A stretch of 63,975 nt of DNA, counting the filler, from an uncultured Methanosarcinales archaeon (GTDB lineage Archaea; Nanobdellota; Nanobdellia; Woesearchaeales; CAYSVS01), in NCBI GenBank assembly GCA_964434475.1. It is 21 parts of 21 records of this genome, joined end to end, with 100 filler letters (N's around TTAATTAATTAA, not from the genome) between each part and the next. Parts side by side here need not be neighbours in the genome. Positions count along the whole stretch, not along the records: positions 29,460 to 32,281 come from CAYSVS010000096.1; 20 more parts are not named here. The stretch is one strand, 5' to 3'. Each line of letters starts with the position of its first letter. The first letter of the stretch is position 1. Positions 4,272 to 56,599 of the stretch are shown here, in pieces. The notes below the pieces were generated by a model, which had not been told where the DNA came from, did not search any database, and worked only from the letters and a program-made list of their open reading frames with translations. Made by a program: the position numbers and the translations under genes.

Positions 4272-4322
4272 TATCAAGTAGATATATAGAGTTTACGTTT
4301 TTGCTAATTTTGCAAAGTTCCC
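4272..4322. repeat. Contig-end repeat C (probable IS5-like element end)
   Basis: Reverse complement of GGGAACTTTGCAAAATTAGCAAAAACGTAAACTCTATATATCTACTTG; other copies at 19536-19586, 32234-32281, 35270-35319, 37910-37959. Confidence 0.85.
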
Positions 4323-4450
4323 TTCATAATAAAAATATAATTTATGTTAATGTATAAATAGTCAGTAAATGCTAGAACAATATAATTCCATAAAAAAGCT
4401 TATAAATGATTACTTAAATTCTTTTTTAGTATCAAAAGAGGTATTTAATT

Positions 4451-19362: not shown

Positions 19363-19535
19363 ATTTTTTCTCTTATTTTTTTCTATTTATTTTAGTTGTA
19401 TAATTATATTTCTGCATTTTGAGAGGAATATTGGTGTTTGTTTGATTATATCTTTATTATCCATATTCAATGAAAAAAATTTGTTTTTGCCTTGTATCTT
19501 GCTTTTTAAATTAGACTTGTGTTCAAGATCATTAA

Positions 19536-19586
19536 GGGAACTTTGCAAAATTAGCAAAAACGTAAACTCTATATATCTACTTGATA
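19536..19586. repeat. Contig-end repeat C copy
   Basis: Matches other C copies; preceded by TAA. Confidence 0.85.
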
Positions 19587-23297: not shown

Positions 23298-23436
23298 GGT
23301 CGATCACGCCCCGCAGGCAATCCCAGGAATAGGAATTCCAGCCGTCTGTTTTGACGCTTGCGGTGGCCCTCAAGGGTTCGATGGTCGAGACATAAAGACA
23401 CGGATAGCCTGCTTTCAAGTAGTCGTTCAAATTCAT
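23298..23436 (-). CDS. N-terminal fragment of a possible AAA ATPase (cut by contig edge)
   Basis: MNLNDYLKAGYPCLYVSTIEP...WDC resembles N-termini of Ycf46-like AAA proteins; AAAGGAG RBS. Confidence 0.5.
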
Positions 23437-23465
23437 GACGCTTCTCCTTTCTGTTTGGATTGAAT

Positions 23466-23497
23466 AAAAAAACCCTTCCGGCATGAAACCGGAAGGG
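23466..23497 (-). terminator. Intrinsic terminator-like hairpin
   Basis: CCCTTCCGG-CATGAAA-CCGGAAGGG stem with T-run on minus strand. Confidence 0.7.
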
Positions 23498-23527
23498 CGT
23501 TTCAAAAAGTGTTCCATTGGTTGTGCG

Positions 23528-23875
23528 TTAACTTACATAATCTTCGAGCCTGCGAATAATGGTAAACGGCGCGAGATCGTACCGGCCGACGTGGCTTTCG
23601 ACATCATGGGATTCGACGAAAACCTCACCGGTCGTTTCCCTGCTCCCAAACACCTCGAGACCGATATACCCGAGCCGGTCGTTTTTGCTCAGAACAAAGA
23701 TCCGGCCGTTTTCCCGGTAAACATGGATGTCATCGGAATAGCCTGCCGCAATTTTATGGACATGCAGGCCGATTCTATCCCGGAAAACGATTTCAAGACA
23801 CGGGTTGAACCGACCGGCTGTGTGCATATCAGAAAAGGATTCTTTTTGGATGGAAAAGCCTTTAAATCGCCGCAT
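23528..23875 (-). CDS. Hypothetical protein
   Basis: AGGAGGTG RBS before ATG; co-oriented with neighbours. Confidence 0.7.
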   Translation of the reverse strand: MRRFKGFSIQKESFSDMHTAGRFNPCLEIVFRDRIGLHVHKIAAGYSDDIHVYRENGRIFVLSKNDRLGYIGLEVFGSRETTGEVFVESHDVESHVGRYDLAPFTIIRRLEDYVS

Positions 23876-24037
23876 GATTCACCTCCTCTCTTTCAGTTTC
23901 GGGCACGGCGCCGGTAAGAACCCGGCGGATCACCTTTTCGGTATCGGAGAGTACGCGAAGCCAGGCAGTCATACCCGATTCATCGGGATACCCTTATTTA
24001 CGGGCTTACTGAAACGAGGTTCGTTGTTGGCCTGAGA

Positions 24038-25678
24038 TTAGGCATCATTCGCTACAGTCATGGGTGGCTGCATTGTTTTTACGCTGCCGTCTTTATGCTC
24101 CATCCTGACTCTGCCGTCAGAGTAGACATGAGTTGCTGTCCAATCGGGCGAGATGTGACTTAGCAGTGTAATGATGTTCTGACGGAGTTGCTCATCCGGG
24201 CCGATGAGGTTCGCCCAAAATCGGTTGAGGTCTTCCTCAAAGGCGAATAGTTGCGTATCGTAGGTATCCCCATCTTCATACCAGCCGCCCAGATGATACC
24301 AGATCTCATAAGATTGGAGGCGATTCTGTGCTTGAGCTGTGACCATGATGTGATCATCCGTCCAACATGGCTTGGTTTTCAATGAAAGCGGCGCTTTGGC
24401 CATGCAGACAGGAGAGGAGAAGACTTTGCTGTCACTGGTATGTACAGTAATGCTCAACTCGCCCACGCAGGTCAGTTCACCTGACCACAGGCATTCACTG
24501 TAAAGCTTATTGCCGAGTTTCACCTCAACTTTCCCGATTGTCGGCAACATGGCCCAGGAATAACCATCGTAAAATGAGTTGATGCTGACGGGTATGAAGG
24601 GATCCTTGAATGTACCGAGCGCCGCCAGGATATGTGCATTTACATCATCACCATCCGCGCCCTGCGCCTTGGAGTCGAAGCGATAGCAACTCTTCAGGGG
24701 GAAGGTTTCGGGCATGACAACCTCTACCGGTTCCGGAGATTCCGTATCAGCAAGCAGCCCTGTGTCGAAAGTTGGCTTTGCCTCGGGAAGCGTGATACCG
24801 AGCTCCTTGGCACGGAGGAATTCCTTGTACGGCAGCTTGTGCTCTCCTTTACTTTCAATGTAGCGGTACGCCTCCATCTCGATTGCCGCCAGTAGTTGCT
24901 TGTATACGTCGTCCTCCACGAGACGTGTTCGGGCCGGCAGCATCAACCGGATTCCGGTTGGCCCACCTGTAAGATCCACCAGATAGCACAGCCTGTGGTC
25001 ACTGATCGGGTGATAGTCGAATGTGACGAACTGTCCGTGGAAATTAACGATCCCCCTATTGATGAACCATCGGTCGCCCCTACATGACTTGTGCCACCGG
25101 GTCAGTTGCGCGTATTCAATGATTTCTATCTTACAGCCCAGTTCAGGATGACGGGCGGCATTCCCAGACACAAACGGCAGCATGGGGCAGCGTTTTCCAT
25201 CCACTATTACCAGCATACCGGAAAAGACGGCGTTGATGTCCACTTTCGACAATTCCCACGGCTCATCCTGGAACCGCAGGATAGCGCCTTTTCGTACCGG
25301 CGTTGGGTCATCAAGAACCTCAATTGGCGCACTCGTCCAGCCATCCTTTGTAATGGTGGCCATCTTGCCCTTCGACCGAATGATAACTTCGCGCGGCGCC
25401 AGGCAGAATATACCAACGCCTGCGGGGTCTTCACTTGCTTCACAGGCATCGTTCCAGTCTGATCCGCCGAGATCCAGAAGCTTGGCAAAATTGCCTATGC
25501 CATGGCCGTTATCCTTAATTGTTACCCAGCCGTCTTTGTTTCCGATGCTGACTTTTGTTGCACCAGCCCGCCGGGCGTTCTGCAGGAGCTCAATTATCCT
25601 GCCACGTAAGGTGCCGGTAAAGAGCCTGTCTGCTTTACCCAGCAGTCTTTGGTTTACACATGCTTGTATGGTTTCCAT
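24038..25678 (-). CDS. GHKL (HATPase_c) domain protein
   Basis: ELLQNARRAGAT, IKDNGHGI, AGVGIF motifs; AAGGAGG RBS. Confidence 0.85.
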   Translation of the reverse strand: METIQACVNQRLLGKADRLFTGTLRGRIIELLQNARRAGATKVSIGNKDGWVTIKDNGHGIGNFAKLLDLGGSDWNDACEASEDPAGVGIFCLAPREVIIRSKGKMATITKDGWTSAPIEVLDDPTPVRKGAILRFQDEPWELSKVDINAVFSGMLVIVDGKRCPMLPFVSGNAARHPELGCKIEIIEYAQLTRWHKSCRGDRWFINRGIVNFHGQFVTFDYHPISDHRLCYLVDLTGGPTGIRLMLPARTRLVEDDVYKQLLAAIEMEAYRYIESKGEHKLPYKEFLRAKELGITLPEAKPTFDTGLLADTESPEPVEVVMPETFPLKSCYRFDSKAQGADGDDVNAHILAALGTFKDPFIPVSINSFYDGYSWAMLPTIGKVEVKLGNKLYSECLWSGELTCVGELSITVHTSDSKVFSSPVCMAKAPLSLKTKPCWTDDHIMVTAQAQNRLQSYEIWYHLGGWYEDGDTYDTQLFAFEEDLNRFWANLIGPDEQLRQNIITLLSHISPDWTATHVYSDGRVRMEHKDGSVKTMQPPMTVANDA

Positions 25679-25716
25679 TTCGATTACCTCCTTATCTTTC
25701 TATTGTCAGAAAACTT

Positions 25717-25751
25717 AAAAAAGCCCTCTGGTTATGATTTCCAGAGGGCTT
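25717..25751 (-). terminator. Intrinsic terminator-like hairpin
   Basis: AAGCCCTCTGG...CCAGAGGGCTT stem with T-run on minus strand. Confidence 0.7.
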
Positions 25752-25807
25752 GTGGATGAAACGCATCTTCAGTGGCTTATAATTATACTCTTGCCTGTTG
25801 TTCCTAC

Positions 25808-26044
25808 TTAGATATCAAGTTGTTTGTTCAGGGCCCCCTCTCTATAGCCGTTTTTCATCTTCACAGTTCCCCATCCGTAAAACCATGACCTCCAGTCAAC
25901 CTCGCTTCCGATCTTCCTGGCACGTTCCACCATGTCCAAAGCCTCCCGGTGCGTTTCAAAGGGCCCTGCTACCAAGTTGAATCGGTCGCCGTCCACTATC
26001 GAAACATAATAGCATTCGCTGTCTGTCCAGTTCCCGCGTTTCAT
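25808..26044 (-). CDS. Small hypothetical protein (phage/plasmid-like)
   Basis: GGAGG RBS before MKRGNW...; AGPFETH motif. Confidence 0.6.
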   Translation of the reverse strand: MKRGNWTDSECYYVSIVDGDRFNLVAGPFETHREALDMVERARKIGSEVDWRSWFYGWGTVKMKNGYREGALNKQLDI

Positions 26045-26444
26045 TGTTTTACCTCCTCCATCCATTCAATTATTACCTGTTTCTTTGACAGCTTCGCTGG
26101 CCTCATCAACCTGAGGCCATGCCATTTGCCTTTTTCTGGTTTTACCTCTCCAGGCAAGGAATATACGTGTTACACTAACAAGCTCACATCTCTGACATAA
26201 TCCCTGCCATCGGATTCGATGATCTCGATAAAATGTGTCACATCCTGAACAGCGCAGGAAAATCGTCCACCACCGAACCGCACTAAAACCGGCTGTAATC
26301 TGTGCTCCAGCACAATATCCGGAACGTCCTTATCAGTGATGAAANNNNNNNNNNNNNNNNNNNNNNNNNNNNNNNNNNNNNNNNNNNNTTAATTAATTAA
26401 NNNNNNNNNNNNNNNNNNNNNNNNNNNNNNNNNNNNNNNNNNNN

Positions 26445-29359: not shown

Positions 29360-29531
29360 NNNNNNNNNNNNNNNNNNNNNNNNNNNNNNNNNNNNNNNNN
29401 NNNTTAATTAATTAANNNNNNNNNNNNNNNNNNNNNNNNNNNNNNNNNNNNNNNNNNNNTATGATTTTAACGAAGATAACAACATTAGAATTTTCGGTTT
29501 TAACCTCTGTGGAGACGAGCCCCGAATTGAG

Positions 29532-29554
29532 TTTAACATTAGGACACTGTTATA
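29532..29554. other. Palindromic spacer site 1 of cassette-like array
   Basis: TTTAACA-N9-TGTTATA. Confidence 0.6.
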
Positions 29555-29621
29555 ATCTTCCGTTAGGAACGAGGAATAGTTTGCAAGACGGTTTTTGACG
29601 AAGTCAAAAAATTCCGAAGAG

Positions 29622-30265
29622 TTAATTCTGAGTGCCGTTAAGTATGTATATATAAAAAGATTTTTAGTTGTGATATGAAACAAATTTATGAATAAATTTG
29701 GGAATTAGCAAAACCTTATTATGAAAAAGGTCGTTCTATGGATATTGATCATATAGAATGTATGATGCAAGATGCATTTTTTATTTGTAAAAAGGAAAAC
29801 CTTGATGATTCTCTACTGCTTCCATTAGTGATATTACATGATGTTGGATATGCTGAAGTACCAAAGGATAATCCATTCAAATTAAATTTAAGAAAAGCAC
29901 ATATGGAAGCAGGAGCTAAAATTGCCAGACAAATATTAGAAAAATTAAATTATCCTAAAGACAAAATTGGAAAAATTGAATATTATATTTCAGTTCATGA
30001 TAATTGGGCTTTAGGAGACAATTCAGTTTATGAGGATGATTTAATTTTGGCGGTTTTTACTGATTTAGATTATATATGGATGGCTACACCAAAAGGTTTT
30101 CCTGCTTTAATGAAAATTTTGGATAAAAACAAACAAGAAATGCTTGAATATTTGGAAAAAAATGACAAACCCAAACTAAGACCTTTTTCTACAAAAACAA
30201 CTAAAATTGTTTATGAAGAATATCTTGCAGATAGGCGAAAAGAAGTTCTAGGCACTCAGAATTAA
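29622..30265. mobile_element. Putative gene cassette 1 bounded by a perfect 15-bp inverted repeat
   Basis: TTAATTCTGAGTGCC (29622-29636) / GGCACTCAGAATTAA (30251-30265). Confidence 0.6.
29675..30265 (+). pseudogene. HD-domain phosphohydrolase with an early in-frame TAA (ORF track starts at 29738)
   Basis: MKQIYE*IWELAKPYYEKGRSMDIDH...ILHDVGY...HMEAG...HD...DLD. Confidence 0.75.
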
Positions 30266-30349
30266 TTGATTATAAGATCGGGCCCTGTTAAATGAGGGTG
30301 AGCCGAAGGCGAAAGTGCAACGTCCCCGAATGACTGAAAGGAAGGAGAG
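30266..30349. repeat. Structured inter-cassette spacer
   Basis: TATAAGA-N8-TGTTAAA, then AGGGTGAGC..GAAG.CGAAAG.GCA.CGTCCCC shared with 31292-31365. Confidence 0.7.
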
Positions 30350-31291
30350 TAATTTTTAGTGGCGTTCAATCAAATGAGCGAATGCGATACATCAAGAACA
30401 AGAAGCAAGGGGACAATCTCTTTTTACTTTTTTTAGGGGAGGGGCTTTTTTGTTTCTTTTTTTAAAATAACAAAGTAGTTTTTAATGATATCTTTATTTC
30501 CTTATATACAATCTTCTTGACAAGATTCTTTTGTTTCAGGGCATGGACAACCTTCCCCTTGACAAACCATTTCGTCACATATACCATCGCCACATTTGTC
30601 TTCACAAATATTTGAAGGAATAGCACTATCTAGTGTCTCTGAAAATAAATCTCCTTCAGGAGTTTCACAATATGGCTTGCATCCAATACAATCAGGATAT
30701 AAAACTTCATAACCTGCTTCAACACAAGAATTAAAATCAGTTACTGGAACAATTCGTTTATCTGCTTTTGTAATTTCTGAGTAAGTCACATTATTGATAC
30801 TACCACCTTCAATTATCATGCTTGTCTCAATTTTTTCAAGATTAGTAATATTAGTTTTATTAACTTTATATTCATATACTAATTCAAAACATCCAGTTCC
30901 ACAAATTATCGGATCTGATTTTAATTTAAGATTATAACCATTAAGATCATTGTAATTATAACTCTGTTTGATTCTTTTTTCAGCTATTTGTTTTGCTTCA
31001 TTAACTGTTATTTGATTTTCTATCTTTTTATTTTCATAATTAAATTTTCCCAGAAAACCTATTATTGATATAAAAGATATTATTAATGCTAATGTAATGA
31101 AAATCCAAATTATTATCTTTACTTTATTATTAACCAATTTCATATATATGTGTAAATGTTAATTTATTATAAATTTTTCTAGTAATTTCGAACAACGAAG
31201 TTGTGAGCGTAAATGTGCGTAGCACCAGCCTCTCCCTTTTTTCTCTTTTGTTTTAATTGTCCTCCCTTCTACTTTTAGCCACTAAAAATTA
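30350..31291. mobile_element. Putative gene cassette 2 bounded by a perfect 14-bp inverted repeat
   Basis: TAATTTTTAGTGGC (30350-30363) / GCCACTAAAAATTA (31278-31291). Confidence 0.6.
30502..31143 (-). CDS. Membrane-anchored exported Cys-rich protein
   Basis: N-terminal TM; FNSCVEAGY..CETP and CEDKCGDGICDEMVC...CPETKESCQEDC modules. Confidence 0.8.
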   Translation of the reverse strand: MKLVNNKVKIIIWIFITLALIISFISIIGFLGKFNYENKKIENQITVNEAKQIAEKRIKQSYNYNDLNGYNLKLKSDPIICGTGCFELVYEYKVNKTNITNLEKIETSMIIEGGSINNVTYSEITKADKRIVPVTDFNSCVEAGYEVLYPDCIGCKPYCETPEGDLFSETLDSAIPSNICEDKCGDGICDEMVCQGEGCPCPETKESCQEDCI

Positions 31292-31431
31292 TTTCATTTA
31301 ACATCGGGGTCCCTTGTTATACAAGGGTGAGCGTAACGCAGTGAAGCGAAAGCGCAGCGTCCCCTTGAGTAGAATTTTTACGTTTATTCATATCGAACGA
31401 AGTGAGTCAAATTTTAAAAGTTTGGGGCGTT
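31292..31431. repeat. Structured inter-cassette spacer plus left arm of a third unit
   Basis: TTTAACA-N11-TGTTATA, CCCTTGT-TAT-ACAAGGG hairpin, conserved block, ends TTTGGGGC-GTT. Confidence 0.7.
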
Positions 31432-32233
31432 AATAAGAAATAATCTTAATAAAATTACCTTTTTTAATCCACTCTTCGTGTTTTACAAGCTTCTCTGAAA
31501 AATCTTGAAACCTATCTGCCACACGATGAATTGAACCATCTGAATTAAGAAATTTAGGATTAATATATCTCAATTTAGTTCTAGAATGAAAATGAAAGTC
31601 ATTCGGGTCATCAATAATCTTTAATTTTGGGTTGAGCATTTCCAATTTTTTTAAAATCAATTGATTGCCTGATTCTTTTAGTTTTGTATAAACAGCTAAA
31701 TCATCATCAAATAAGTCTTTTTCATCAAGTATTTTTTCATCCAAAGCAATTTTTATTGCATCGGCTAAAATTTGAAATAATGCTACTTCAAGGGGATGAG
31801 ACCATTTTTCTTCATCCATTCTTAGATAATCTTCTGAAAAACTTTTTGCAATTAGCTCTCCATTAATAATAATTTCATTGTTTTGAACCATAAAACTTGA
31901 AATATATTTATTTATTTTATCACTAAAACCTTCACTCGCTACCATATCCCTTAATGTATAATCTATCCTATCTGCACATAAGTCAGGTAATGATTTTTCT
32001 AATAAGGAGAAATTATGTTCATCTAAAATCCTATCAATATCAAAATTAAATTTTTTTAAGATTGCAGGTATTTCTGATTGAAGTATTATCTTTGCATGAA
32101 ATTTTTCATGGAACTCATGATTGTGGTTAGTATCTTTAAATACAAAATCAATCACATGTGAAAAGGCAGTATGAGGAATATCATGAAGTAATCCTGCTAT
32201 TTGTTCTTCAATTGATGCACCTAATTTTCTTAA
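31430..32233 (-). pseudogene. HD-domain phosphohydrolase interrupted at its 5' part by repeat C element
   Basis: Frame continues upstream of 32155 as LRKLGASIEEQIAGLLHDIPHTAFSHVID; LCADRIDY; runs into repeat C. Confidence 0.8.
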
Positions 32234-32281
32234 GGGAACTTTGCAAAATTAGCAAAAACGTAAACTCTATATATCTACTTG
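32234..32281. repeat. Contig-end repeat C copy
   Basis: Matches other C copies; preceded by TAA. Confidence 0.85.
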
Positions 32282-35269: not shown

Positions 35270-35319
35270 ATCAAGTAGATATATAGAGTTTACGTTTTTG
35301 CTAATTTTGCAAAGTTCCC
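35270..35319. repeat. Contig-end repeat C copy (reverse)
   Basis: Matches 4272-4322. Confidence 0.85.
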
Positions 35320-35520
35320 TAAATTATTTTTAATTACAAACTGGGTTTTATACCCTGTTGCTTTGCAATGATCTTTAGTTTGTAATCTTAAGAATTCTGA
35401 TTGTGTAGCAAAAAATCTAGTGTATACCTCTAGCTTGCAACGACGCGTAGTTAGATTTTATGAATTTTTATTGATTTCAAAATACTTTAGTTCACAAAAA
35501 ATTTATATAATATATAATTA

Positions 35521-36786
35521 ATGATACATTTTAAATTGAAAAAAGAGATGGCAGAGAAGATATTATTTTGTTTATTCATCTTAGTTTTAACTATTTTTTT
35601 CTCATTTTTAGGATATGATAGGAACATATTGATAACAGGTGACGCAACCAGATTAACTATAGCCAATACTCCTCCTGTTCTGAACAAGCTTGACAATATT
35701 ACTGTCTATGAAGGAAATGTTGCAGATATAAATTCTACTGGTAACTTGTCTGCTTATGATATTGATCAGGATATTTTGACTTTTTATTTTGAAGCTCCAT
35801 TTAACTCATCAGGGCAATGGCAGACATTTATAGGAAGTGCAGGGAATTATTACATCAATGTTTCTGTAGATGATAATTCAGGTGGTGTAGATTGGCAGAT
35901 TGTTGAAGTTATAGTTTTAGCTTCAGAAATTCCTGCTCCGAAAAATATAGAGATATTTTTGAATGATGATGAAAAGAGTGTTGATCTGAATTGGACTGAG
36001 GTAGATTCTGCTTCAGAGTATATTGTTTATTATCACGATAATGTAACACATCTGAAAGATATAACCAATCCTGGCATAGTGAATTTTACTGTGACAGATA
36101 ATAATTGGACAGATAGTGGAGCTGATCAAGTTCAAACAAGATTTTATAGAGTGGGTGCTAAAAACAATGCTTTGCTTAATGTAAACGAAACAATAGTCGG
36201 CAAACATACATATTATCTCAAAGCAAGCAGTGATGAATCAAAACAGACAAATACTATAGCTTCGCCTTTTTTTAATAATTATACTATGTCTGGATTTTTA
36301 GATAGGCTGCAAGACTGCAAAAGCACCACACAACCAAGCAAGAGGATAATCATACAGACAGTAAACAGGACAAACCCTGAACAGCAGCCTTGGACAACAC
36401 ATATTGAAGGTTTTGATGCTAATGCAGATTATAAGATAGATCATAAAGAAGGTTATTTCGCTTTAGTGCATAGGAACTGTAATGTTACTTTTGTTGGAGA
36501 GATAGAAAGGTATAACGTTTATTTGACTTATGTTGCAAGCTCTGATCAACAAAAACAGACAAATTTAATAGGTGTTCCTTATCCAGGTAGAAGCATGAGC
36601 AAGTATGCTTCTGAAGTAAGCGATTCTTTTATGATTATTCAAACTGTTAACAGGACAAACCCTGAACAGCAGCCTTGGATCACTCATATAAAAGGATTTG
36701 ATGCAAATGCATATTATAGGATGAGTACAGGAGAAGGATATTATGTTAAGGTTAAGAACACACTTAACCATAATGTGACGTGGTAA
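35521..36786 (+). CDS. Exported protein with Ig/cadherin-like, FN3-like and duplicated C-terminal domains
   Basis: N-terminal TM, NTPPVL..DIDQD..LTF, LNWTEV, many N-x-S/T sequons, twin IIQTVNRTNPEQQPW repeats. Confidence 0.78.
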   Translation: MIHFKLKKEMAEKILFCLFILVLTIFFSFLGYDRNILITGDATRLTIANTPPVLNKLDNITVYEGNVADINSTGNLSAYDIDQDILTFYFEAPFNSSGQWQTFIGSAGNYYINVSVDDNSGGVDWQIVEVIVLASEIPAPKNIEIFLNDDEKSVDLNWTEVDSASEYIVYYHDNVTHLKDITNPGIVNFTVTDNNWTDSGADQVQTRFYRVGAKNNALLNVNETIVGKHTYYLKASSDESKQTNTIASPFFNNYTMSGFLDRLQDCKSTTQPSKRIIIQTVNRTNPEQQPWTTHIEGFDANADYKIDHKEGYFALVHRNCNVTFVGEIERYNVYLTYVASSDQQKQTNLIGVPYPGRSMSKYASEVSDSFMIIQTVNRTNPEQQPWITHIKGFDANAYYRMSTGEGYYVKVKNTLNHNVTW

Positions 36787-37775
36787 AAATGAAAAAATTA
36801 ATATTTTTAATGACTGCATTGATATTGATCAATATGGCTTATGCTGATTTTGATAATCCATATGTTATTTATGGATTTCTTTACGATAGTGATGGAAATG
36901 TTATAGAAAATCAAGATATTATTATACATATAGAAGTTTGTACAGGAACAGATGAATGTATAAAGAAAACATGCTTTACAGATAATCTTAATATTAAAAC
37001 AGATTCAAAAGGAGGGTATTTTTACACTTTTAGTGATGACTCGGATTCTGAGTTTGTGTTTGATGAAACTGGATTAGCCTGTGACAGTTTTATAGATATA
37101 GGAGATAGGATATGGATAACAACAGAAGGATGTTTTGATAAGACATACTATAATATATCTGACAGTAGTTCTTTGTTTTTAGATAAGCAGTATCTTAATC
37201 AATGTAATGATGGTCCTTCGCATGACGGTAGTAATAGTGGCGGAAGCGGAGCAGGCGGCGGAGGAATATCTAATTTTCCTGATAATTATCAAAAAGAAGA
37301 TAATGATCAAGAACAGACCATAAACAAATCATCTGATAAACAAGAGCCTGTAGAGGTATTTGATATTGATATTGAAATAGATAAAATTGAATTTGATAAA
37401 GAAAATGATGTTTTGACTATAGATATAGATCTTAAAAAAAGTTATGATAATCTATTGATAGATTTTTTTATATACGATGTAAATCAAGAACTTATATCTG
37501 AAGTTGTCAAGGATCATAGCGGCAGAAAATTAAGGATAGAAAAAGAATTAAAGGATATTAAGAGCAGCATATATTCTTTTGTTATTTATGTGTATGATTC
37601 TGATCAAAATCTTCTGGCGACAAAAATATTAGATTATATAATAGATAATGAGGATGGAAAACCGGCAAGATTAGAAGAACCTAGGCAAATGTTTAACTGG
37701 AATATTGTTTTGTTAATAATTATAGTTTTGTTGGTAGTTAAGTTTCAGTATAGTATTTTTATGAAGAAAAGATGA
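36780..37775 (+). CDS. Acidic surface protein with signal peptide and C-terminal TM anchor
   Basis: MKKLIFLMTALILINMAYA, Gly linker, C-terminal hydrophobic helix plus KKR. Confidence 0.78.
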   Translation: MVKMKKLIFLMTALILINMAYADFDNPYVIYGFLYDSDGNVIENQDIIIHIEVCTGTDECIKKTCFTDNLNIKTDSKGGYFYTFSDDSDSEFVFDETGLACDSFIDIGDRIWITTEGCFDKTYYNISDSSSLFLDKQYLNQCNDGPSHDGSNSGGSGAGGGGISNFPDNYQKEDNDQEQTINKSSDKQEPVEVFDIDIEIDKIEFDKENDVLTIDIDLKKSYDNLLIDFFIYDVNQELISEVVKDHSGRKLRIEKELKDIKSSIYSFVIYVYDSDQNLLATKILDYIIDNEDGKPARLEEPRQMFNWNIVLLIIIVLLVVKFQYSIFMKKR

Positions 37776-37909
37776 ATTTATTTATTTTGTATTTTATTGA
37801 AATTTTTGCAGAGATTTGAATTAGTTTATTTGAAATCTCTAGGTTTTGGATAAGTGTTTTTTTATTATTTATTTTATATAACTTATTTTTAAGTTTTTAT
37901 TGTGATTTA

Positions 37910-37959
37910 GGGAACTTTGCAAAATTAGCAAAAACGTAAACTCTATATATCTACTTGAT
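37910..37959. repeat. Contig-end repeat C copy
   Basis: Matches other C copies; preceded by TTA. Confidence 0.85.
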
Positions 37960-38061
37960 NNNNNNNNNNNNNNNNNNNNNNNNNNNNNNNNNNNNNNNNN
38001 NNNTTAATTAATTAANNNNNNNNNNNNNNNNNNNNNNNNNNNNNNNNNNNNNNNNNNNNAG

Positions 38062-40735
38062 GTGAATAATTTCCCCAAAATTTTTTGTATTTTCCTTTTA
38101 ATGTCCGCTGCATTGCTTGGCAAGACCCATTATGTTGCTTCAAGCGCAGATGCAGGCACCTACTCGTTTCGTGAGATGGTAACAATCGCAGCTTCAGGGG
38201 ATACCATTCGCTTTCGAAAAATCACCAGAATTTATCTTTACAGCATTGTCATCATCGATAAAGACCTGTTCATCATCGGAGAAAACAAGGGAGTGATGCT
38301 GGATGGCCAGGGACAAACATGTATCTTGAAAATAGAATCGAATAAAAATGTCTATGTCGAAAACATTGATTTCTACCGAGGGTATAATAAAAAACTTGCA
38401 AGTCCTTTTAATGATGGTGGTGCGATTCAAAACCTGGGGAATCTGCTTCTTGTCGATTGTAAAGTGCGTAACTCTCAAGCTGGAAGGAATGGCGGTGGAA
38501 TATTTAACGCCGGCAACTTGAGATTATTGCAAACATCCCTTCTCAGAAATCAAGCGGATCAAAACGGCGGCGCCATTTTTTGTGATCCCGCAGCCGGCAG
38601 TATACGAATCGAATCATCCTCACAAATTCATGAAAACACGGCAGCGCATGGTGGCGGTATCTTTAGCAACATCGCGATTCGAGCCGAAAACAGTACAATT
38701 CGTAATAATACCCTTCACGGCATTTATATCAGCGATTCTGTCTCGGACACCACATTTTTTACCGACTGCCACGTGGATTCCAATGACCAACACGGTATTG
38801 TCGCGAATGCAGAATTAAAAATGATTCGTTCAACGGTAAATTTTAACACCGATAATGGTATTCGCACAGAAATGGATTATTGTGATGTGGTCATTCAGGA
38901 GAGCACTATTGAAGGCAATGCGGGTTGGGGACTATATTTGCACGAATGGTGTGATCTGCACATGAGTAACAGCAATGTGCTGCAAAATCACGGCGGGATC
39001 ATGTGTGTTGATGAAAACGAGCTGTTCATCGATAATTCTGATATCAAAGAAAATACAGTTATTGGCAGCGGGGGCGGCATTCGTGGACTTGCAGATGTAG
39101 AGATTCACATTGCGGGATCTACGTTTCAAGGCAATACAGCAACACAAAATGGCGGTGCAATTTATGGAGCATTGGAAGGTCTGGAAATCAATGTCTCTCA
39201 ATTTTACGCCAACACAGCTGGCGATCATGGCGGTGCACTCAGTTTCCTCTCCATCGCACCGGTCATTATTCACAATAGTGAGTTTAAAGACAATACAGCC
39301 GGCAAAAATGGCGGAGCCTGTAATCTCGATTCATATACCACGATAGAAATCTTTTCAACAAATTTTGTTGACAATACCGCGGCAGAAAACGGAGGTGGCT
39401 GCTTTTTCAAAGACACCTATGAACACATTCATGTCGCAGGGAGTGTCTACTTTGGCAATACGGCTGAACGCGGCGCTGGTCTTTATAATGAATGCGACAG
39501 TCTGATCCTGGAAACCGTCCAGCTTGGCGAAAATACAGCCCTTATTGCCGGCGGCGGCATTTACAATTCGTACGAGGGCGGCGACATTACTGGATGGGAT
39601 TGCGCACTCGCCGGCAATTCCGCGGCACAATTTGGCGGCGCAATTTATAACGGATTTGAAAGCGGTTACAGCACGGGGATACCAACCACCTATGGTGGAT
39701 TTCTACACTTGAAAGAGTGTGAGATTTCCGCCAATACAACCGCCGGCACTGGAGCAGGCATCCAAAATACCGAGTATACCACATTGGACTCTTGTAACAT
39801 CCATGCCAATACTGCCGATACATTTGGCGGCGGTGTGTACAATCACGGTGAAGAAGCACTTGTCACCGCCAAGCATACATCATTTTCGTTAAACACAGCA
39901 GAGAATGGTGGTGGTATTTACAATAAAAAATATCTTGACCTGAATCAATGTACGATTGACGCCAATTCCGTAACCGGGGATGGAGGCGGTATTTACAGTC
40001 TGACGCTGGAAGACGAATGCCACATCTCCAACTCGACATTCTATAACAATCTAACCTCGAATAATGGCGGCGGCTTGTGGACAGGCGGCGCTCCGGCAAG
40101 CTGGATGGAAGTGATCAATTGTACATTCGTGGAAAATCGAGCATTGTCAGGCGGTGCTTCAATTTACAATTCGGATTACGGTTTGACGCTAGTAAATACG
40201 ATTATGAGTGATGCTTTGGTCGGAGCCGAATATGCAGGGACATCCCCAACAACCGCTGTTGCCAATATGGTTAAAGATGGATCGCTGACTGGTGCTGTGA
40301 TGGCTGATCCCTTGCTCATGCCGTTTAATAATTATGGCGGGTTGACCAAAACCTGCCCGCTAAACGATACCAGTCCGGCCATTGATGCGGGCGATAATTC
40401 GTATGTGACAATTTCAAAAGATCAAAGCTGTAATCCCCGCATTCATAATGGAACTGTCGATTTAGGCGCCAATGAATATCAGGGAGCTATTACCTCTATC
40501 GAGAGCGAAAAATTGCCCACGGAATTTGCCCTTTACACCAACTATCCAAACCCATTCAATCCTAAAACGGCGATCAAATTTGATTTACCCAAATCTGAAT
40601 GGGTGACCTTGAAGATTTACGATGTTTTGGGTCGTGAAATTGGGATTCTCGTTGATGAACTCAAAACAGCAGGATTCCACACCATCACCTGGGATGCAAC
40701 CCGACAAGCAAGCGGGGTTTATTTTTACGAGCTTT
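38062..40735 (+). CDS. Secreted beta-helix repeat protein (GGAI/FxxN repeats) with FCB-type C-terminal sorting domain (bacterial); 3' cut
   Basis: Repeated NxA..GGAI/GGGIYN; SPAIDAG..VDLGANE; NYPNPFNP...LKIYDVLGREI...ASGVYFY. Confidence 0.85.
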
Positions 40736-54167: not shown

Positions 54168-56053
54168 GATATGTTGCAACGTTTCGTTCAGTTCCGCGGC
54201 TTTGTCCAGCAAGCCTTGCAGCCCGGCGGTTTCATAGCTGTCTTCGGCAGAGGGTTCTTGGCCGTACCATTCCACGATGAATGCATCGATACCCACCGAC
54301 CAGGCGGTCAGGATGTCGTATTCCCAGACGCGTTCCCGTTGCGAATCAAACTGACCAAAAATGCTGCTGTCGGTGATGCCGCCCTTGTTGGCCGCGTCCC
54401 AGTGACGATTGGCTTGATTATTATCAGCATCGCCGTACCAGGGCGTGTACCAGGCGAACAGCTCGCGCTCGACGCCGATCTCGTCATCGAGTTCCTGATC
54501 GCGGGAATAGGCGTAACCAAAATCGGCCCAGTTCACGGAATTCTGTCCGCTCATCTGCAGGGTGTAATCTGCATTGGAAGAAGTCAACGCATAGTGCGCG
54601 GGCAGTGTGGTTGCATCCACCACCACTTTAAATTCGCCCTGCGGCACGTTTTTAAAGAGATAGCGGCCGTTTTCGTCGGTTTGGGCTTTGGCGACCTGAT
54701 TGCCGTTGGCATCCAGCAAGCGCAAGACAACGCCGGGAATCGGCGGTTCGTTCGCATCCTGTTTGCCATCCTCGTTCAGATCATTCCAGATATAATCGCC
54801 GATGGAACTGATGTGGCGCATGTAACCGAAATTCACATCCTCGCGATGTTCTTCCGGTTCCAGGTTGACGCCGATCTGATCCGACGCGGTGGTCAGCCAG
54901 TAATCTTCCCAAACGGTTGTCGGATCAACCGCCACGGTCCACGGATAACGGGCGCGGACATTGGTGAATTGATACGTGCCGTTGCCGGCGGTTTGGGTCG
55001 TTTCCACCACATTGCCATCCTTGTCGAGCAAATTAATGACGACATTGGGCATCGGATTTTCTTGGCTTGCCTTGACGCCGTCTTCATTGTTATCGATCCA
55101 CACCAGGCCGCTGATCTGACCGGGATTCGGCGCATAGCCAAAGTCCGCGTCTTTATAATCCTGACCGGCAACCAGCGTCACGGTATAAACCTCCGTCGGC
55201 GTGGTGCGGTGATGTTTCGGTTCAATGGTCGACAAATCCACCTCGACCTTGTAGACGCCGGGCAGCAAGTCGCCAAACTCGTACAAGCCGCTCGCATCGG
55301 TTGTCGTCGTGGTGATCAACTGATCATTCTGATCCAGCAACCGCACTGTAACATTTTCGGCCGGGTAATCATCGTTGTTGAACACCCCGTCTTCATCCAT
55401 ATCGTACCAGACAAAGTCGCCAATGGATGCGGGTTTGGGCGCATAGCCGAAATCGGCATCCAGATAATCCGTCAACGGCTGCAACTGCACCTGAATGGTG
55501 TTTTGCCCCGGCGAGGTGCGTTCCCAATTTGCCGGGATGCTCGTTTCATCCACCTCGACAACATAGGTTGCAGGATACAGCCCCGGGAACTCGTAAGAGC
55601 CGTCCGGCTGCGTTGTGGTGGTGGCGATGGTCGAGCCGTCTTTTTTCAAATTGACGGTAATACCGCCGAGACCGGTTTCAGTCGGGTCCTGATCGCCTTC
55701 CCAATCGAGATCCTGCCAGACATAATCGCCGATTTTCGACGGTTCCGGTTGATAACCGAAATCGGCATCTTGAAAAACTTCTTCCTTGGCCAAATTGACG
55801 GTCAGAGGATCGTTGGCCGTGGTGAGGTTGTACTGCGCCGGAACGGTCGCATCCACCACGTTCACCGTGTAGGTCCCCTCTTTCAAGCCGTCAAAGATCG
55901 GATAATAACCGTCCGAATCTGTTGTATGAGTATCGACAACCTGACCCTGATCATTCAGCAGTTGAACCTGAACATTCACCAGACCGGGTTCATCCGGGTC
56001 CTGAACACCGTCGCCGTTATAATCGGCCCAAACACGGTCACCGATGCTGCCGG
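54168..56053 (-). CDS. Large bacterial surface protein fragment: SdrD B-like repeats followed by a GH99/GH71-like glycoside hydrolase domain
   Basis: Repeated IGDYVWxDxxxDG...DADFGY; AWYTPWYG..HW..FDS..GIDAFIVEWYG; high GC. Confidence 0.8.
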
Positions 56054-56063
56054 NNNNNNNNNN

Positions 56064-56599
56064 TATCGGGACCTGCCGGAGTTCATCACCACGGCCATGC
56101 TGCCGGTGTTCACCACCGTAATCTCGGTATCATCCTGGTCATCTTCTGAGGGTTCATCATTGTTCGGGGTCGAGTCGCTGTCGTATTCGTTGGTGACAAC
56201 CACCTCGGCCTCGTTTGTAAACGTGCCTTTGGTGTTGGCAACGGCTTGAATATTCAACGTTGCGTCGGCGCCGTTTGCCAGACTGCCAACCGTCCAGATG
56301 TTGGTGTTTGTATCATAAGCGCCGTCGGAAGACGAGAACGTAAACTGCGACGGCAGTACATCCTCAACCTGAACATTGGTGGCGCCATCCGGGCCGGCGT
56401 TGCTGACGGTGATGGTAAAGGTTACCGTATCGCCGACGTAAACTTGACCGGGGCTGCCGGTCTTTTCAAGCGACACATCGACAACGCCAACCTGCACCGA
56501 GGCGTCATCCTGATCGTCTTCTTGAGGCACGTTATTATTCGGCGTCGAATCGATATCGGCCTCATCACAGGCCGTAACCTCGGCGGGGTTGGTGAGAGT
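56064..56599 (-). CDS. DUF11-type repeats, probably upstream part of the same surface protein (internal 10-N gap)
   Basis: DVSLEKT..VTFTITVSNAGPDGATNVQVEDVLP, DSDSTPNN. Confidence 0.75.

Follow-up and report, generated by a model that had tools for sequence, protein, structure and literature searches.

We analyzed a 63,975-nt stretch of DNA from the archaeal assembly GCA_964434475.1 (here called the window), which consists of 21 short contigs separated by N linkers. The feature under study fills a single contig (positions 29460 to 32281; 2,822 nt, GC content 0.30), in which single genes are enclosed by pairs of inverted repeats (the arms, X to the left and X′ to the right of each gene) and are set apart by GC-rich spacers. 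This contig is probably a fragment of an integron-type gene cassette array, its arms being the split halves of the outer stem of the hairpin recombination site. Read along the plus strand, the order is hairpin site, GC-rich core, in some cases an extension, arm X, one gene, arm X′, and the 5′ box of the next site. The first-pass annotation of this DNA had seen here a row of single-gene mobile cassettes of the integron type, a view that the attC-like sites, boundary signature, and arms described below uphold.

The GC-rich element between a right arm and the next left arm occurs twice in the contig and is absent from the rest of the window. Its three most conserved blocks were combined into a gapped pattern, which matched at least 115 stretches in contigs representing one genome per species. 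Among the matches listed, 82 loci with a GC content of ≤0.46 were kept, and 33 of the 115 (GC content >0.46) were dropped as chance matches of a GC-rich pattern. The kept loci belong mostly to metagenome-assembled genomes (MAGs) of Patescibacteria, or candidate phyla radiation (CPR), bacteria and DPANN archaea (Woese-, Pace-, and Nanoarchaeota) and are nearly identical over the core. Alignment of their flanks delimited a unit of about 150 to 200 nt in the relatives. It opens with a 5′ box (ATTTC or ATTGN followed by a heptamer with AAC at its end), continues through a long stem that contains two internal hairpins to a 3′ box (GTTA, three further bases, and GA), and closes with the core and, in most cases, the pentamer TTGAG. 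The core is near-invariant, measures 32 to 57 nt, and follows every site in the family.

Nineteen clean full-length copies were aligned (alignment A1), and a covariance model, R1, was built from them. In the consensus, the pairing between AAC in the 5′ box and GTT in the 3′ box is continued by a 10- to 12-bp stem. Standard pairs occupy 93.1% of the cells (19 sequences, 29 pairs), with compensatory changes in 16 of the 29 pairs; 0 of 500 column shuffles reached the observed values, and sliding the partner by 1 to 3 columns reduced pairing to 30 to 49%. The R helix is paired in 100% of the cells, while 9 of the 11 pairs of the L helix (helix 2) carry compensatory changes. Integron attC sites are made of R″/R′ and L″/L′ boxes and recombine as a folded bottom strand; by analogy, the geometry of the unit is that of an attC site. 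In the R and L stems of 130 distinct sequences read on the strand that corresponds to the window plus strand, G·T pairs outnumber A·C pairs 118 to 20 in an alignment fitted to the model of that same strand, which points to the plus strand, antisense to most cassette genes, as the strand predicted to fold.

Model R1 gave 133 matches in 90 sources, always in the same orientation within a locus. Five genomes reached through the loci were then searched with it, 150 candidates being scored per genome: one Nanoarchaeota MAG contained at least 62 matches spread over many contigs, the richest of which (18 kb) has 7, and the other four contained 1 to 6 each. A regular expression of two motifs yielded one copy per locus, a misleading result, as R1 finds co-oriented neighbors in many loci. 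The window contains two strong R1 matches only, sites B and C of our contig (Table 1); the next best reaches 12.4 bits and lies in an unrelated GC-rich contig. Rfam 15, which includes no attC model, gave no family for the spacer elements of the contig at an E value of ≤10. Against eight full-length loci (E ≤ 0.1), it returned only tRNAs and a plastid untranslated region model overlapping one tRNA on the opposite strand. Single-sequence folds of the spacers are no better than those of shuffled sequences (z scores of −1.9 to +0.3). A hammerhead-like reading of the core, made by eye, was dropped because the catalytic core did not fit.

As a separate observation, the hairpin interiors of a Patescibacteria MAG locus (L017) and a Nanoarchaeota MAG locus (L128) are 99% identical, reflecting either cross-domain cassette traffic or misbinned contigs.

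The limits of the mobile unit can be read from the boxes. In classical integrons, complementarity links the start of a cassette to the 5′ box of the cassette's own attC site and not to that of the adjacent one. Across the family, the 3′ box of one site is perfectly complementary over 9 nt to the 5′ box of the following site in 21 of 43 consecutive pairs and matches at 8 or more of the 9 positions in 28 of 43. The corresponding controls were 5 of 116 perfect for the two boxes of the same site, 0 of 42 in the reverse direction, and 2.9% for random pairs. Within the contig, the 3′ box of site B matches the 5′ box of site C at 9 of 9 positions and its own 5′ box at 4 of 9. This complementarity to the box of the next site therefore identifies the stretch from hairpin to hairpin as a unit that once closed on itself. 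In addition, 47 pairs of sites from different loci have hairpin interiors at least 93% identical; 22 of them have the same 3′ box and 2 the same 5′ box. The linkage counts, taken with the strand evidence, would place the crossover within the 5′ box on the folded strand, which is also its position in integrons. The cassettes of the window would then span 29537 to 30275, 30276 to 31301, and 31302 to beyond the contig end.

The arms had been described in the first-pass annotation as pairs that covary within each cassette. Both pairs are indeed fully complementary (15 of 15 positions for X1/X1′ and 14 of 14 for X2/X2′) and differ in sequence from one cassette to the other; the GTT after each left arm, the TA directly 5′ of both right arms, and the overlaps with stop codons were also found where they had been reported. 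Arm X3 has no partner in the contig, the expected position being beyond gene 3. When the contig was resampled 300 times under a first-order Markov model and perfect inverted repeats at least 100 nt apart were counted, repeats of ≥14 nt appeared in 27 of 300 resamples and of ≥15 nt in 7 of 300. A single arm pair is thus weak evidence, because such lengths arise by chance in an AT-rich contig, and the weight comes from placement and generality. Both were assessed in 42 intervals between consecutive sites, from the related loci and the window, by comparing the 126 nt after one site with the 33 nt before the next. A perfect inverted repeat of at least 11 nt was found in 28 of the 42 intervals, compared with 0 of 42 mismatched controls (left region against an unrelated site), so that matched arm pairs around other genes, the check proposed with the original observation, do exist. 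In 26 of the 28 arm-bearing intervals the distance from the end of the right arm to the first base of the next site is at most 2 nt, and left arms begin directly after TTGAG or after the extension hairpin. The perfect duplexes are 11 to 24 bp long, each bracketing one open reading frame (ORF), with sequences that vary from cassette to cassette. The arms are a rule of the site family and not a peculiarity of this contig. One proposal that did not hold was recombination at the GTT beside the left arms: the R-box sites lie in the spacer, directly after the right arms, and GTT is not general. GTT- or GTC-like bases follow the arm in many, not all, of 18 related cases plus window cassette 2 in which the arm abuts the site, and overlap the stop codon where the gene is antisense.

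The arms could instead act in RNA, X and X′ pairing around the ORF in read-through transcripts as a processing or stabilizing stem, for which the RNase III stems of rRNA or phages provide a precedent. Perfect duplexes bracketing single ORFs would suit such a role, and polycistronic read-through is plausible given that the cassette genes are co-oriented in 36 of 42 loci. We nevertheless regard this explanation as unlikely. The flush junction of X′ with the next DNA site in 26 of 28 intervals, and the start of X directly after the core or the extension, fit a DNA site; arms also surround gene 1, which is reversed; and DPANN archaea, to our knowledge, generally lack RNase III. The RNA and DNA roles do not exclude each other.

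The integron-type interpretation is further supported by a recombinase in the relatives. Seven loci encode a protein of 270 to 282 amino acids (aa) with PF00589 and PF13495 domains, on the site strand and 0.3 to 1.4 kb beyond a site; an eighth (L003) has a fragment with PF13495 only, and a further recombinase was found in a ninth (L077). In six loci (L003, L029, L044, L049, L056, and L077), a terminal half-site lies 44 to 127 nt before the recombinase start, its 5′ box complementary at 7 of 7 positions to the preceding 3′ box. Whether arrays abut a tyrosine recombinase had been raised as a check in the first-pass annotation. By reading, most of the six half-sites are followed by an L-box-like motif (TATGCGA- or TATACGA-like), and no returning stem was noted. 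The layout is, by analogy, that of attI beside intI. Six of the recombinases associated with relatives score 207 to 224 bits, in two stretches, on the integron-integrase model TIGR02249 (cutoff, 265) and 211 to 251 bits on the archaeal XerA model, where four of the six reach the cutoff of 220. Residues 186 to 206 of the L056 protein (21 aa) stand opposite residues 178 to 241 of IntI4 (2A3V; 64 aa). XerA, for its part, aligns end to end with the L056 protein. We take the segment absent from this protein to be the IntI-specific additional domain (I2 helix). Judged by these alignments, the associated recombinase is Xer/XerA-like and lacks the IntI-specific insertion.

A second possibility is that the contig belongs to an ordinary CALIN (cluster of attC sites lacking an integron-integrase) of a classical integron, with plain attC sites, a canonical IntI elsewhere, and the Xer-like gene as a bystander. 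Ghaly et al. (2022; PMC9668308) report integrons and CALINs in Archaea, Nanoarchaeota included, with IntIs that carry the additional domain, and the R-box geometry of our sites is canonical. This explanation is, in our view, very unlikely: the six loci with terminal half-sites end beside the Xer-like start with the same 5′ box and, in most, the L-box-like motif, and no protein with an IntI insertion occurs in the flanks examined (whole genomes were not screened for IntI).

In the cassette mechanism that we propose instead, a tyrosine recombinase would cut the folded plus strand in the 5′ box, after the AA, comparable to the cutting of the attC bottom strand by IntI. The mobile cassette would comprise the hairpin, core, X, gene, X′, and next 5′ box. 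Once this unit is excised as a circle, X′ and X would flank the site and pair, forming a cassette-specific outer stem below the R-box stem; outer stem, R stem, and L stem would make up a continuous stack, with the core as a side branch beside the cut. Integration would part X and X′ to either side of the gene. The complementarity that wraps the genes is in two parts, R boxes outside and arms inside, and the core and extension lie on one side only. The outer stem might favor folding of the circle, or might loop out the gene to join two sites in single-stranded DNA. We infer the exact cutting base, the form of the circle, and the roles of the outer stem and core; the site family, its covariation, the boundary signature, the arm rule, the linkage, and the presence of the recombinase in relatives are observed.

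Several observations weigh against this interpretation. Neither box is common to the two members in 24 of the 47 hairpin-matched pairs, and these pairs are not independent, one hairpin type supplying many of them. Arms are missing from 14 of the 42 intervals, and the G·T excess was counted in an alignment fitted to the model's own strand. In the covered parts, the contigs of four public sequencing runs contain no circle or empty-site joint, although contigs drop rare forms. Activity in the contig itself is unproven, because the window holds no recombinase (tblastn with two related recombinases gave no match at an E value of ≤1, in agreement with the first-pass annotation), no terminal half-site, and no full-length hairpin; the fragment may be inert. 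Finally, some related loci have the same right-hand cassette and yet differ in hairpin or core, a chimerism that is not expected from a single crossover. In L109, the left side, hairpin, and core are those of L072, and the core and right side also occur in L057; between L062 and L066 the right side is common and the core is not; and L014 and L085 form a further pair of this type. We assume that these arose by exchange within the near-invariant core. A crossover after the core, as the chimeras might suggest, was rejected as the main mechanism because it cannot yield the complementarity between a 3′ box and the next 5′ box. A crossover at the 3′ box is disfavored by the linkage count and by the position of the recombinase.

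Two further explanations involve other mobile elements. A gene with its arms might be a small transposon, or a unit resembling a miniature inverted-repeat transposable element (MITE), with terminal inverted repeats, inserted in a conserved landing-pad repeat. Perfect terminal inverted repeats do flank one gene, with conserved sequence on both outer sides. However, the arms differ between cassettes and, therefore, no transposase could recognize them by sequence; the complementarity runs outward into the R boxes across the core; and the array ends carry a tyrosine recombinase and a matching half-site. No recurrent transposase occurs in the flanks, the one IS200-like ORF being confined to L015, and neither the uniform terminal repeats nor the cognate transposase of MITEs and insertion sequences was found, which leaves this explanation scarcely probable. 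Most improbable of all is that the arms are inversion sites at which a recombinase flips single genes (gene-level invertons): inverted repeats do surround genes, a tyrosine recombinase is nearby in relatives, and gene 1 is in the minority orientation, but every cassette has different arms, 36 of 42 ORFs are antisense to the site strand, and the public-run contigs show no inverted joints, the last a weak argument.

The integron-type array invites comparison with known systems. As in sedentary chromosomal or archaeal integrons and CALINs, single-gene, mostly co-oriented cassettes lie between folded hairpin sites; the boxes are of the RYYYAAC/GTTRRRY type, and the 3′ box of one site complements the 5′ box in the site after it; folding involves the strand antisense to the genes; a tyrosine recombinase and an attI-like half-site stand at one end; and there can be many copies per genome. 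Unlike in integrons, the recombinase lacks the IntI insertion (21 aa, compared with 64 in IntI4), a near-invariant core follows each site, each cassette has its own perfect outer stem that integration would split, minimal sites reduced to the R-box stem are common, and the hosts are CPR bacteria and DPANN archaea. The Vibrio cholerae repeats (VCRs), the attC sites of the superintegron, are about 120 nt long, are conserved in sequence within the lineage, and form large arrays; their crossover is at the base of the palindrome, and a complementarity of 6 to 7 nt wraps the gene. Long conserved sites and large arrays are features of our system too, in which the wrap extends over 20 to 35 nt (R box plus X). 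In the pdif modules of Acinetobacter plasmids, genes are flanked by inverted XerC/D sites that share the same 28-bp sequence and act as double-stranded DNA. Single genes between inverted recombination sequences and Xer-type recombinases are common to both systems, whereas each cassette here has arms of its own and the site that is conserved is a hairpin of 130 to 200 nt.

The integron cassette logic is known; the split outer stem, which the arms most likely represent, is a design absent from the textbook description of integrons. Literature searches on CPR and DPANN organisms returned only the archaeal-integron paper and resistome surveys, none of which describes an Xer-type platform, the core, or outer stems that wrap genes, although the supplements of PMC9668308 could list some of the MAGs. 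PMC11386340 describes a few CALINs on contigs with antibiotic resistance genes, and PMC12455944 makes no mention of integron, tyrosine recombinase, cassette, or integrase. More tentatively, these sites may represent a distinct CPR/DPANN integron lineage with an Xer/XerA-like recombinase devoid of I2, in which an outer stem forms in the circle (or across a looped-out gene) and is split upon integration, and a branched core near the cut replaces recognition through extrahelical bases and I2.

If so, cassettes would pass routinely between the two domains, and the near-identical sites of bacterial and archaeal MAGs, those of L017 and L128 among them, would be a mark of this traffic. What defines a classical integron is an integrase whose special domain reads the folded single-stranded attC site, and here the cassette logic apparently operates without that domain. 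This bears on the evolution of single-strand recombination from Xer-type enzymes; in the absence of the domain, strand and direction might be chosen by means of the split outer stem and the conserved core, both of them testable candidates. In organisms whose genomes are very small, the system is apparently a major source of accessory genes, and it may link bacteria and archaea. The contig itself, a decayed fragment, is of modest value in this respect.

The features of the contig are listed in Table 1.

Table 1. Features of contig 29460 to 32281 (window coordinates)
Feature	Position	Strand	Description
Site A, putative decayed mini attC-like site	29526..29557	+	5′ box ATTGAGTTTAAC (29526-29537); 3′ box GTTATAATC (29549-29557)
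Arm X1 (left arm 1)	29622..29636	+	Followed by GTT (29637-29639)
Cassette gene 1, HD-domain protein	29675..30265	+	PF01966, E = 1e-05; opposite to genes 2 and 3
Arm X1′ (right arm 1)	30251..30265	+	Shares its last base with the start of site B
Site B, mini attC-like site plus core	30265..30332	+	Model R1, 53.0 bits, E = 6e-14; 75 model positions missing
Extension between core B and arm X2	30328..30349	+	Like extensions in L005, L061, and L026
Arm X2 (left arm 2)	30350..30363	+	Followed by GTT (30364-30366)
Conserved flank motif inside arm X2, 3′ flank of gene 2	30361..30412	+	Pieces in all four public runs
Cassette gene 2, 213-aa protein	30502..31143	−	N-terminal membrane anchor, Cys-rich C terminus; no assigned family
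Arm X2′ (right arm 2)	31278..31291	+	Shares its last base with the start of site C
Site C, mini attC-like site plus core	31291..31369	+	Model R1, 79.7 bits, E = 1e-21; 73 model positions missing
Arm X3 (third arm)	31409..31428	+	Followed by GTT (31429-31431)
Cassette gene 3, HD-domain protein	31430..32248	−	PF01966, E = 1.2e-07
High-copy repeat, 52 nt	32230..32281		Contig end; outside the cassette system; 4 further copies, all at contig ends

In sites B and C, the top of the hairpin is gone. The R-box stem and 3 to 4 bp remain, and the L-box and variable terminal structure is absent. Site B has the 5′ box TTATAAG (30270 to 30276), whose last base is mutated from C to G, the 3′ box GTTAAAT (30287 to 30293), and the GC-rich core at 30296 to 30327. 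In site C, the 5′ box ATTTAAC (31296 to 31302), the 3′ box GTTATAC (31316 to 31322), the core (31325 to 31364), and TTGAG (31365 to 31369) follow one another. Minimal sites of this kind also occur in other loci, mostly of DPANN MAGs, and the public-run contigs contain the same 3′ box and core behind full-length hairpins. Positions 29526 to 29557 may be a third, decayed attC-like site (site A), an assignment of low confidence: model R1 matches weakly there (29526 to 29566; 5.3 bits, E = 5.1), no recognizable core follows, and, by reading, its 3′ box is complementary to the 5′ box of site B at 8 of 9 positions. With the tops of B and C deleted, the box of B mutated, A decayed, and gene 3 truncated, the fragment looks like an aging part of an array.

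The cassette genes lie in either orientation, as first noted, gene 1 on the plus strand and genes 2 and 3 on the minus strand. Gene 1 ends with a TAA (30263 to 30265) that forms the final 3 nt of X1′. It also contains an in-frame TAA at 29693 to 29695, within the apparent natural N terminus, which could be a nonsense mutation unless the start is shorter; an intact ORF of 175 aa begins at the ATG at 29738 and retains the first conserved His. Gene 3 has no start codon, its 5′ end being cut at the start of the high-copy repeat, and its stop (31430 to 31432, minus strand) overlaps the GTT after arm X3. The antisense ORFs in the 36 of 42 loci mentioned above are those nearest downstream of the site, and their 3′ ends lie 52 to 220 nt from the start of the core. 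Of 177 flank ORFs, 150 were searched against Pfam; the cargo includes GNAT acetyltransferases, NUDIX proteins, HAD hydrolases, methyltransferases, glyoxalase, HD proteins, restriction enzymes, and others. A sigma-70-like promoter (TTGACA, 17-nt spacer, TATACT) was seen directly after the left arm in CPR locus L056 (2046 to 2130) and also in CPR loci L006 and L072. It lies in the recombinase-proximal cassette, faces the recombinase side, and has a plus-strand ORF next to it.

The flank motif at 30361 to 30412 recurs in other cassettes with unlike sequence on either side, and a similar motif is present in L128. A second motif, at 31184 to 31236 inside the arms of cassette 2, recurs in many contigs of the four metagenome runs with unrelated flanks and resembles the 5′ portion of another decayed site (GAAGTT after a box that ends in AAC).

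The modules of the contig most resemble those of Woesearchaeota and Nanoarchaeota MAGs (L026 and L020). One public run, X1, contains 92% of the sampled words of the contig and is probably its source; the other runs contain modules only, none of the runs listed is an RNA run, and gene 3 is present at about 98% identity in a run of a second study. In assembled contigs of the four runs, the core, the motifs at 30361 to 30412 and 31184 to 31236, and the terminal repeat have much higher summed depth and occur in many contexts; the summed contig depth in run X1 is 475 for the bin 32216 to 32281. No tRNA was found in the contig.

The first-pass annotation had also tied this contig to another (the top6 contig) through a repeat (repeat C). 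Within the window, only the 52-nt repeat at 32230 to 32281 was found to link it to other contigs, with copies 98 to 100% identical at 19532 to 19583, 4275 to 4324, 35272 to 35323, and 37906 to 37957 (three other contigs). In contig 35270 to 37959, this repeat stands inverted at both ends around two ORFs of 421 and 331 aa, neither of which has a Pfam match, which makes the contig a possible insertion element of an unclassified kind. Contigs 23298 to 26344, 38060 to 40735, and 54168 to 56599 have GC contents of 0.45 to 0.55, compared with about 0.30 to 0.35 elsewhere in the window, which suggests that the bin mixes organisms.

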